DNA of 2,413 nucleotides, taken from Escherichia coli. Lineage in GTDB: Bacteria; Pseudomonadota; Gammaproteobacteria; Enterobacterales; Enterobacteriaceae. The notes beneath the pieces were generated by a model. That model saw only the letters and a program-made list of their open reading frames with translations. It was not told where the DNA came from and made no database searches. Numbering within the stretch: position 1 is the stretch's first letter; each line of letters opens with the position of its first letter. This document shows, in pieces, positions 1 through 638 of this stretch. Position numbers and translations under genes: made by a program. The stretch lies in NCBI RefSeq assembly GCF_003334255.1, contig NZ_QOWU01000134.1; one strand, 5' to 3'.

Positions 1-638
1 GGACCCTGTGGTCCGGGTGGTCCGGCCTCTCCACGTGGGCCGGTGTCACCTTTCGGCCCCGGCGGTCCGCCCGGGTCACCTTTATCGCCCTTCGGTCCCT
101 GTGGACCTGTTTCTCCCCGTTCTCCCTTTGGCCCCGGCTCACCTTTTGGTCCGACCGCCCCCGTTGCCCCGGCTGGTCCCTTTGCCCCTGTGGCACCCTG
201 TGGACCTGTGTCCCCCTTCTCGCCCGCCGGTCCCCGGGCATTCTCTGCCCGTTTCTTCGCTTCCTCTGCACTCGCCGCCGACGCTTCAGCACGCTTCAGG
301 ATTTCCGCTGCCACCGCTTCCAGCTCTGCAAGCGCTTTCGGGTAATACTGCGCCTCATCCTGTTCCATCAGAAATTTATTCAGCGTTCCCGGCTCAGAAT
401 CCGCCTTCACCAGAATGTCACCCACATACGACGGGGCGTACCCTTCCGTGTTCAGCGTCACCCGGTACCACCCCGGCTCCACATCAAAACTGTAACTGCC
501 GGTTTCCTCCGGCTGCCCCTGCGCCACCGTGGTGACTATCACTGTCTCTGTGGTGCGTCGCGCTTTCAGCTCTATGGTGCATCCCGGCACCGGCTTCCCG
601 GTGCCGTCCTTCAGCACGCCCGATATTCTGACTGTCAT
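1..638 (-). CDS. stf: Side tail fibre protein (lambda Stf-like), N-terminal 212 codons; CDS continues past the window start
   Basis: Minus-strand ATG at 638..636, preceded by GGAG (648..645) with a 6-nt spacer. My codon-by-codon translation is open to position 1 with no stop: [28 protein letters not shown]... This matches, from memory, the lambda Stf N-terminus ([26 protein letters not shown]...). An Ala/Glu-rich helical segment follows, then Gly-X-Y repeats. The ORF is absent from the supplied track only because it has no stop inside the window. Confidence 0.85.
3..233 (-). repeat. Collagen-like Gly-X-Y repeat tract inside stf ([18 protein letters not shown] ...), continuing beyond the window
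   Basis: Translation of the minus strand puts Gly at every third codon, with codon first bases at 233, 224, ... 71 (19 triplets). One extra residue follows (codon 62..60), then at least 6 more triplets (Gly codons at 59, 50, 41, 32, 23, 14, 5). The DNA is visibly GC-rich with recurring GGnCCn. The antisense strand gives Pro-rich pseudo-ORFs. Confidence 0.85.

Follow-up and report, generated by a model that had tools for sequence, protein, structure and literature searches.

A lambda-like prophage side tail fibre of Escherichia coli with a predicted collar domain and a collagen-like shaft

Gene organization of the locus

The window analysed here is the whole stretch of 2,413 nucleotides from Escherichia coli contig NZ_QOWU01000134.1. 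All of its recognizable genes lie on the minus strand in the lambda-like order J-lom-stf (Table 1), and the tail operons of relatives are arranged in the order H-M-L-K-I-J-lom-stf. At least 316 C-terminal residues of J are encoded in the window, and the lom product gives OmpX/Ail-type matches in NCBIfam that stay below the cutoff. The ORF of the fibre gene starts with the ATG at 636–638 and exits the window at base 1; the region 234–638, with which the initial annotation was concerned, corresponds exactly to its codons 1–135. Against PHROG, the fibre gene matches phrog_366 (tail fiber, E = 3e-82).

Positions 1–1845 of the window are 99.8% identical at the nucleotide level to GenBank AF151091, the record of prophage P-EibA from E. 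coli ECOR-9, and the match ends at 1845 because the record itself ends inside J. The whole window is present in four complete E. coli chromosomes at 99.7–99.8% identity (e.g., JE86-ST05), and the fibre gene recurs at 97% identity in phage PhiR5_1, whose recorded host is E. coli C. The RefSeq name for the gene in the JE86 chromosomes is “prophage tail fiber N-terminal domain-containing protein,” while the PhiR5_1 copy is annotated as “hypothetical protein.” Residues beyond 212 (of about 479) were studied in relatives that are 97–99.8% identical.

Table 1. Coordinates of the genes, signals and protein segments found in the window.
Feature	Position (nt)	Strand	Basis or remarks
J, C-terminal part (tail tip/central fibre)	1457–2413	−	NCBIfam lambda_TipJ positions 842–1163, E = 4.5e-149
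lom (Ail/Lom/OmpX-family outer-membrane protein)	790–1389	−	ORF and Lom annotation in P-EibA and JE86
Terminator-like hairpin	657–686	−	13-bp stem and T8; between lom and the stf ribosome-binding site, directly upstream of the latter
Shine-Dalgarno-like GGGAGAA	643–649	−	4 nt 5′ of the fibre ATG, by inspection
stf/ORF-401-like side tail fibre gene, 5′ part	3–638	−	212 codons, open at the window edge
Lambda-type Stf collar (virion-attachment) domain, aa 1–91	366–638	−	Six-stranded beta sandwich and short helix
Variable linker, aa 92–101	336–365	−	Between collar and stalk; ends in P100
Ala/Glu-rich alpha helix, aa 102–135	234–335	−	About five heptads; AlphaFold2 helix 99–134
First collagen-like (Gly-X-Y) domain, aa 136–212	3–233	−	Every third residue is Gly; truncated at the window edge
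G-D-P-G-G-P-P-G interruption, aa 187–194	57–80	−	Collagen register shifts by one residue

In addition to the hairpin listed between lom and the fibre gene, a second terminator-like hairpin with a T-run follows J at 1419–1438 on the minus strand, so that lom is bracketed by both. A position between two terminators is the classic “moron” layout for lom. This bracketing suggests that lom is transcribed alone in lysogens and that stf is insulated, being reached by read-through only under late antitermination. No sigma-70 promoter was found by a simple scan of the window, and an Rfam scan of the window at E ≤ 1 gave no match.

On the 3′ side of the fibre gene, relatives harbor a DUF4376/tail-fibre-assembly-like gene followed by the gene for a YadA-like immunoglobulin-binding adhesin (EibA). 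P-EibA additionally carries the autotransporter EaaA, and the coordinates of this cargo are 6184–7362 and 1341–5348 in AF151091 and 3782–5245 in a relative record, L004. These genes make up a virulence cargo located at the prophage's right end, which adjoins tRNA-Ser in JE86.

Two Pro-rich antisense ORFs, 8–535 (175 aa) and 43–345 (100 aa), can be read on the plus strand over the collagen-coding DNA. They are very likely artefacts, because Gly and Pro codons leave the opposite strand without stops. One has no match in PHROG and the other has weak matches to collagen-like “tail fiber” entries, which arise because the reverse complement of Gly-Pro codons is again rich in Gly and Pro. A comparable antisense ORF, orf206b, is annotated inside lambda orf-401.

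The collar domain

The likeness of residues 1–95 to the N-terminus of lambda Stf, proposed in the initial annotation, was borne out at several levels. BLASTP against lambda orf-401, which represents the N-terminal part of Stf, gives a single gapless alignment over residues 1–129 (52% identity, E = 8e-42), and the identity to lambda Stf is 61% over residues 1–91 (lambda 1–90) and 59% (56/95) over residues 1–95. The Pfam model PF08400 (phage_tail_N) matches residues 1–134 with its positions 1–134 of 134 (E = 2.7e-42), and a CarboxypepD_reg-like beta-sandwich signal of Pfam is nested in it at residues 5–82. A sequence search of the PDB returns 9e7m_Ta, the Stf collar of Ur-lambda that is also seen in 9MGH (E = 1.6e-29).

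Structure prediction points in the same direction. In an AlphaFold2 model, built as a monomer from a 14-sequence alignment, six strands (3–8, 20–26, 38–41, 48–53, 56–64, and 70–77) are followed by a helix at 86–91. Confidence in the model is moderate, with a mean pLDDT of 66.9; the blocks of the collar reach 75–86 save one loop block at 55. The top Foldseek match of the model is again 9e7m_Ta, with a TM-score of 0.88 (target), an rmsd of 1.5 Å, and 61% identity. Lower matches come from unrelated phages and include the collar spike of Vibrio myophage XM1 (7KJK), the neck fibre of cyanophage A-1(L), the tail tip of mycobacteriophage Bxb1, and the DEV collar; a transthyretin-like “clip-on” domain that joins fibres to tails and necks may thus be widespread.

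In the cryo-EM structures of Ur-lambda (PDB 9E7M and 9MGH), residues 1–94 of Stf are resolved as a six-stranded antiparallel sheet with a helix, and 12 copies of this collar, belonging to four trimeric fibres, ring the place where gpV joins gpM (PMC12617516). The β4–β5 loop of lambda Stf touches E63 of gpV and R80, K2, and W6 of gpM (PMC12617516). Among 14 homologues of the fibre described here, the β4–β5 turn V53-E54-x-G56 is invariant or nearly so. The partner proteins are those of the JE86 prophage, which is 99.8% identical to the window: its gpM is 79% identical to lambda gpM with K2, W6, and R80 kept, and its gpV is 67% identical to lambda gpV with E63 kept. Two facts, 61% identity with the lambda domain of known structure and the conserved contact residues of the partners, argue strongly, by analogy with lambda, that the fibre is attached to the virion through a lambda-type collar. 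On the same analogy, formation of a collar ring and its 12-copy stoichiometry would be expected for this fibre as well.

The linker and the helix

Downstream of the collar, identity to lambda Stf drops to 20% over the linker, residues 92–101. The pLDDT of the model falls below 50 at residues 94–99, and P100 is invariant in 14 sequences. The corresponding part of lambda Stf consists of a flexible linker at 92–101 and a trimeric coiled coil at 102–393 (PMC12617516). Residues 102–135 of the present fibre are collinear with lambda 103–134 at 35–37% identity and lie inside PF08400; they are modelled as a helix with a pLDDT of 55–64, and Ala accounts for 35% of residues 96–135.

The region after residue 95 had been described in the initial annotation as unlike lambda Stf, and this description stands in part. 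Similarity there is much weaker, above all in the linker, but the lambda alignment continues without a gap to residue 129, the helix retains recognizable identity, and PF08400 extends to residue 134. The helix is a collinear, weakly similar, and much shortened start of the lambda coiled coil, and not a segment foreign to lambda Stf.

Coiled-coil character of the helix was checked by a heptad count and a shuffle test. In one register, a hydrophobic residue or Ala occupies 10 of the 11 a/d positions (p ~0.008 by shuffling), while phasing of the large hydrophobic residues alone is not significant (p = 0.27), and thus the heptad signal comes mainly from Ala. Together with the AlphaFold2 helix, the count suggests a short coiled-coil neck, probably three-stranded, through which residues 102–135 would pass into the collagen.

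A coiled coil has also been predicted at the end of the homologous N-terminal domain, PfN, of collagen-like prophage proteins (Ghosh et al., 2012; PMC3368898). In one of these proteins, EPclA, a PfN fragment covering residues 1–140 was mostly monomeric, and PfN-PCoil and the C-terminal domain were trimeric (PMC3368898). PCoil is absent from the P-EibA-type fibre, and the helix is therefore better viewed as a neck than as an autonomous trimerization unit. It is doubtful that residues 102–135 trimerize alone; with the chains held together by collagen and tip, the helix probably assembles into a three-helix bundle.

The collagen-like shaft

Collagen repeats follow the helix, just as the initial annotation had read them. 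Starting at G136, 18 perfect Gly-X-Y triplets come before the interruption at residues 187–194, and at least seven more come after it, up to the window edge. The Pfam Collagen model (PF01391) matches residues 135–190 (E = 4e-8). Identity of residues 136–212 to lambda Stf is 6.5%, a chance level, and the AlphaFold2 model has no structure from residue 135 on, an expected outcome for a lone collagen chain. An interruption of the form GXPGGPXG is a described trait of the collagen regions of E. coli prophage proteins (Ghosh et al., 2012; PMC3368898).

The complete architecture is available from the P-EibA protein of 479 aa, in which Pfam assigns PF08400 to residues 1–134, Collagen to 135–~255, Phage_fiber_2 (Pf2) to 259–300, and Collagen again to 310–~385. 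Its first collagen domain comprises 117 aa in full. The C-terminal ~90 residues of the P-EibA protein have no match in Pfam, including none to PF06820 (PfC). The Pf2 repeat, which lies outside the window, is the sole other stretch in common with lambda Stf, at 56% identity over 52 residues.

EPclA was found to be a trimeric dumbbell with a collagen triple helix by CD, AUC, and EM (PMC3368898). By analogy, a trimeric collagen triple helix is predicted for the P-EibA-type fibre, and its dimensions can be estimated roughly. The rise per residue is 0.15 nm in a coiled coil and 0.29 nm in collagen. At these values, the helix would measure about 5 nm and the collagen domains would add about 33 and 21 nm, compared with about 44 nm for the 292-residue proximal coiled coil of lambda. 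On these collagen lengths, the stalk would have a reach similar to that of lambda with fewer residues.

Limits and exchange of the modules

An alignment of ten diverse fibres, those of P-EibA, JE86, PhiR5_1, lambda, Stx2 phage 1717, YYZ-2008, 640R1, Fels-1, Serratia phage Tlacuache, and phage Seurat, is gapless to about residue 135 and diverges completely thereafter. What follows is a long Ala/Ser coiled coil in lambda, 640R1, and Fels-1, a coiled coil and then collagen in 1717 and YYZ-2008, immediate collagen in the group of P-EibA, JE86, and PhiR5_1, and globular domains in Tlacuache and Seurat. The first 91–95 residues are common to eleven PHROG tail-fibre families. A tblastn search against phages retrieves the N-terminal module from 310 phage records and the downstream part, with collagen masked, from at least 10; the ends of these matches are uninformative on the limit of homology, because low-complexity filtering truncated all of them, even the self-match, at residue 101.

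Where the N-terminal module ends can be read in two ways. It is possible, if rather unlikely, that residues 1–134 are one conserved domain, coextensive with PF08400, and that the sole junction lies at 134/135 where the collagen starts. The Pfam model spans these residues end to end, the lambda alignment runs through the linker without a gap, PHROG tail-fibre families match from 1–133 to 1–140, and the ten fibres remain collinear up to the collagen. Such a single domain accounts poorly, however, for the fall of identity from 61 to 20% and its return to 35–37% across residues 91/101, for the low pLDDT at 94–99, and for the flexible linker that parts the monomeric collar of lambda from its trimeric bundle at the same residues (PMC12617516).

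A further argument against the single domain comes from the fibre of GER2, a phage of the Sepvirinae (AVD99025, 668 aa). Its collar is only 30% identical and is followed by about 100 extra coiled-coil residues, after which residues 201–229 match the helix at 59% identity, in a stretch that includes AENARGP; thus, the helix is closer to GER2 than to lambda. The GER2 fibre then continues with the same Col-Pf2-Col shaft and with a tip that is about 98% identical over the last ~130 aa. The collar groups with lambda; the helix, shaft, and tip group with GER2. This division places the point of module exchange, on protein comparison, in the linker at about residues 92–106. A modular fibre with a boundary near residue 95, as the initial annotation envisaged, agrees with this fibre, with the limits of collar, linker, and coiled coil in Ur-lambda, and with the layout of the AlphaFold2 model.

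At the DNA level, blastn of window positions 1–800 against lambda, Fels-1, 640R1, and Stx phages found no nucleotide similarity in the collar-coding DNA. The mosaic is therefore old and a sharp breakpoint is not mappable, so that the junction of the modules is drawn from gradients of protein identity and not from a DNA breakpoint. Phages PhiR5_1 (3719–5290) and PhiR5_2 (1945–3906) carry closely related collagen shafts on different anchors, a lambda-type collar in the former and a GER2-type one in the latter. In a speculative reading, the series helix-collagen-Pf2-collagen-tip would be a portable cassette for unrelated virion anchors, joined at the flexible linker, across siphophage and Sepvirinae tails.

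Other mosaic boundaries are visible in the DNA of the window. The C-terminus of J and part of lom (997–2413) have 92–94% identity to many Stx1- and Stx2-converting phages, and this similarity stops inside lom at about 997. Similarity to PhiR49_2 and PhiR40_1 ends at about 523, inside the collar-coding region. Neither boundary is at a gene border.

The homologue search with residues 1–135 gave no domain architectures, and modularity was documented from phage records instead. Nearly all database homologues of these residues are labelled “partial,” with 76–237 aa on short contigs. Draft assemblies evidently break in the collagen repeats, and thus both the abundance of such fibres and their architectures are under-represented in protein databases.

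Comparison with known fibres and proposed assembly

Collagen-like proteins of E. coli prophages have been sorted into EPclA to EPclD, and their PfN and Pf2 domains were traced to lambda Stf (Ghosh et al., 2012; PMC3368898). Table 3 of that study lists ORF-401 of P-EibA from ECOR-9 as an EPclC protein of 479 aa with collagen regions of 117 and 75 residues and an empty PCoil column (PMC3368898). The gene in the window is essentially the same gene, with the order PfN-Col-Pf2-Col-non-PfC tip and no PCoil. Its product has Gly-X-Y repeats from residue 136 right after PF08400 and GDPGGPPG at 187–194, and the non-PfC nature of the tip was tested in the P-EibA relative. The protein type has thus been known since 2012, and together with the collar structure of 2025, all of the proposals in the initial annotation are already covered by the literature.

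Three kinds of fibre are instructive for comparison. Lambda Stf has the collar fold and position in common with the P-EibA-type fibre, and its linker and helix begin at the same residue numbers. It differs in what comes next, a coiled coil of ~290 residues rich in Ala, Ser, and Thr, then a hinge and a tip like gp37, whereas only about 34 helical residues are left in the P-EibA-type fibre and collagen stands in place of the rest. The EPclA and EPclB proteins of O157:H7 and Stx prophages (e.g., ECs2717, YYZ-2008 gp70, and that of Stx2 phage 1717) likewise have a PfN collar, a helical region, and a collagen triple helix, but their lambda-like collar allele is 58–60% identical to that of the window, and they possess a PCoil of 109–116 residues and a PfC (PF06820) tip. 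The fibres of GER2 and PhiR5_2 resemble it at the opposite end, in the last helical turns, the Col-Pf2-Col shaft, and the C-terminal tip, and differ in a collar-like N-terminal domain of 30% identity and in about 100 coiled-coil residues preceding the shared helix.

The region under study is very probably the coding sequence for residues 1–135 of a side tail fibre that belongs to a lambda-like prophage of the P-EibA type, has the EPclC collagen architecture, and is anchored by a collar. In the proposed assembly, residues 1–91 would fold as the gpStf collar, and twelve copies from four trimeric fibres would encircle the tail at the border of the last gpV disc and gpM. The flexible linker of about 10 residues would let three collar domains meet on one stalk. 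Residues 102–135 would be what is left of the start of the lambda coiled coil, a short helical neck rich in Ala. From G136 the chains would wind into a collagen triple helix, and the stalk, when traced beyond the window, reads Col(117)-Pf2-Col(75)-globular tip. Collagen would replace the long coiled coil of lambda as the spacer that holds the receptor-binding tip off the tail. Helix, collagen, and tip would act together as a cassette, seen also on a different anchor in Sepvirinae phages, with the linker as the putative exchange point.

Role and integrity of the gene in the prophage

The fibre gene is flanked by genes for surface factors that lysogens express, Lom upstream and Eib downstream, and its product has a collagen helix of mammalian type, from which an extra host-binding role can be conceived: beyond its virion role, the fibre might be produced by lysogens, or set free on virions, so as to bind host matrix or immune collagen receptors. 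Such an addition to the virion role is improbable on present grounds.

Very improbable, too, is the view that the protein serves chiefly as a bacterial surface adhesin or virulence factor expressed by the lysogen, a moron like lom and eib, and not as a fibre of the virion. The gene does sit between lom and the YadA-like Eib adhesin gene, host interactions were raised as a possibility for this group of proteins (Ghosh et al., 2012; PMC3368898), and NCBIfam gives matches to the collagen-like adhesins Scl of streptococci and Lcl of Legionella. All of these adhesin matches are, however, compositional and far under the curated cutoffs (e.g., 119 vs. 325 bits), and the protein has no evident signal peptide, its N-terminus being a virion collar domain. 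The surroundings also favor a fibre: a terminator-like hairpin separates the gene from lom, a tail-fibre-assembly gene comes next, and the plaque-forming phage PhiR5_1 has its 97%-identical copy.

It is equally hard to regard the gene as a decaying remnant in a defective prophage, giving no functional fibre after the manner of the stf frameshift in lambda PaPa, which is viable despite the loss (PMC12617516): relatives do vary in length (478, 479, and 523 aa), and in the P-EibA record of 2000 the Gly-X-Y register is lost through a 3-nt difference, but the frame is open over the whole window and in all close relatives with length differences that preserve it, the collagen register of the window is intact apart from the conserved GXPGGPXG interruption, and at least 80% of the window occurs in 26 complete genomes of the 5426 covered, with 97.7–99.8% identity in the best 12 listed.

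The 3-nt difference itself is confined to one place. The 212 residues of the window are those of the P-EibA protein AAF63232 except in an indel region near residue 207, where the window (about 3–20, residues ~205–212) keeps the register and the P-EibA record reads GEAGPRPQGPAG. JE86 and PhiR5_1 side with the window, and the P-EibA variant could be a true allele or could stem from a sequencing error of that time in a GC-rich repeat.

Implications

The P-EibA-type fibre adds little new biology of its own. It represents a textbook case of tail-fibre modularity, in which a conserved collar is joined, through a linker serving as the exchange point, to interchangeable stalks, either coiled coil or collagen, and interchangeable tips. 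For the annotation of prophage genomes, “side tail fibre, collar domain + collagen shaft” can take the place of “hypothetical protein,” as in PhiR5_1, and for the engineering of fibres, residues 92–101 are marked as a natural splice site. The collar structure determined for Ur-lambda in 2025 is extended in this way to the collagen-type fibres that are common in E. coli prophages.
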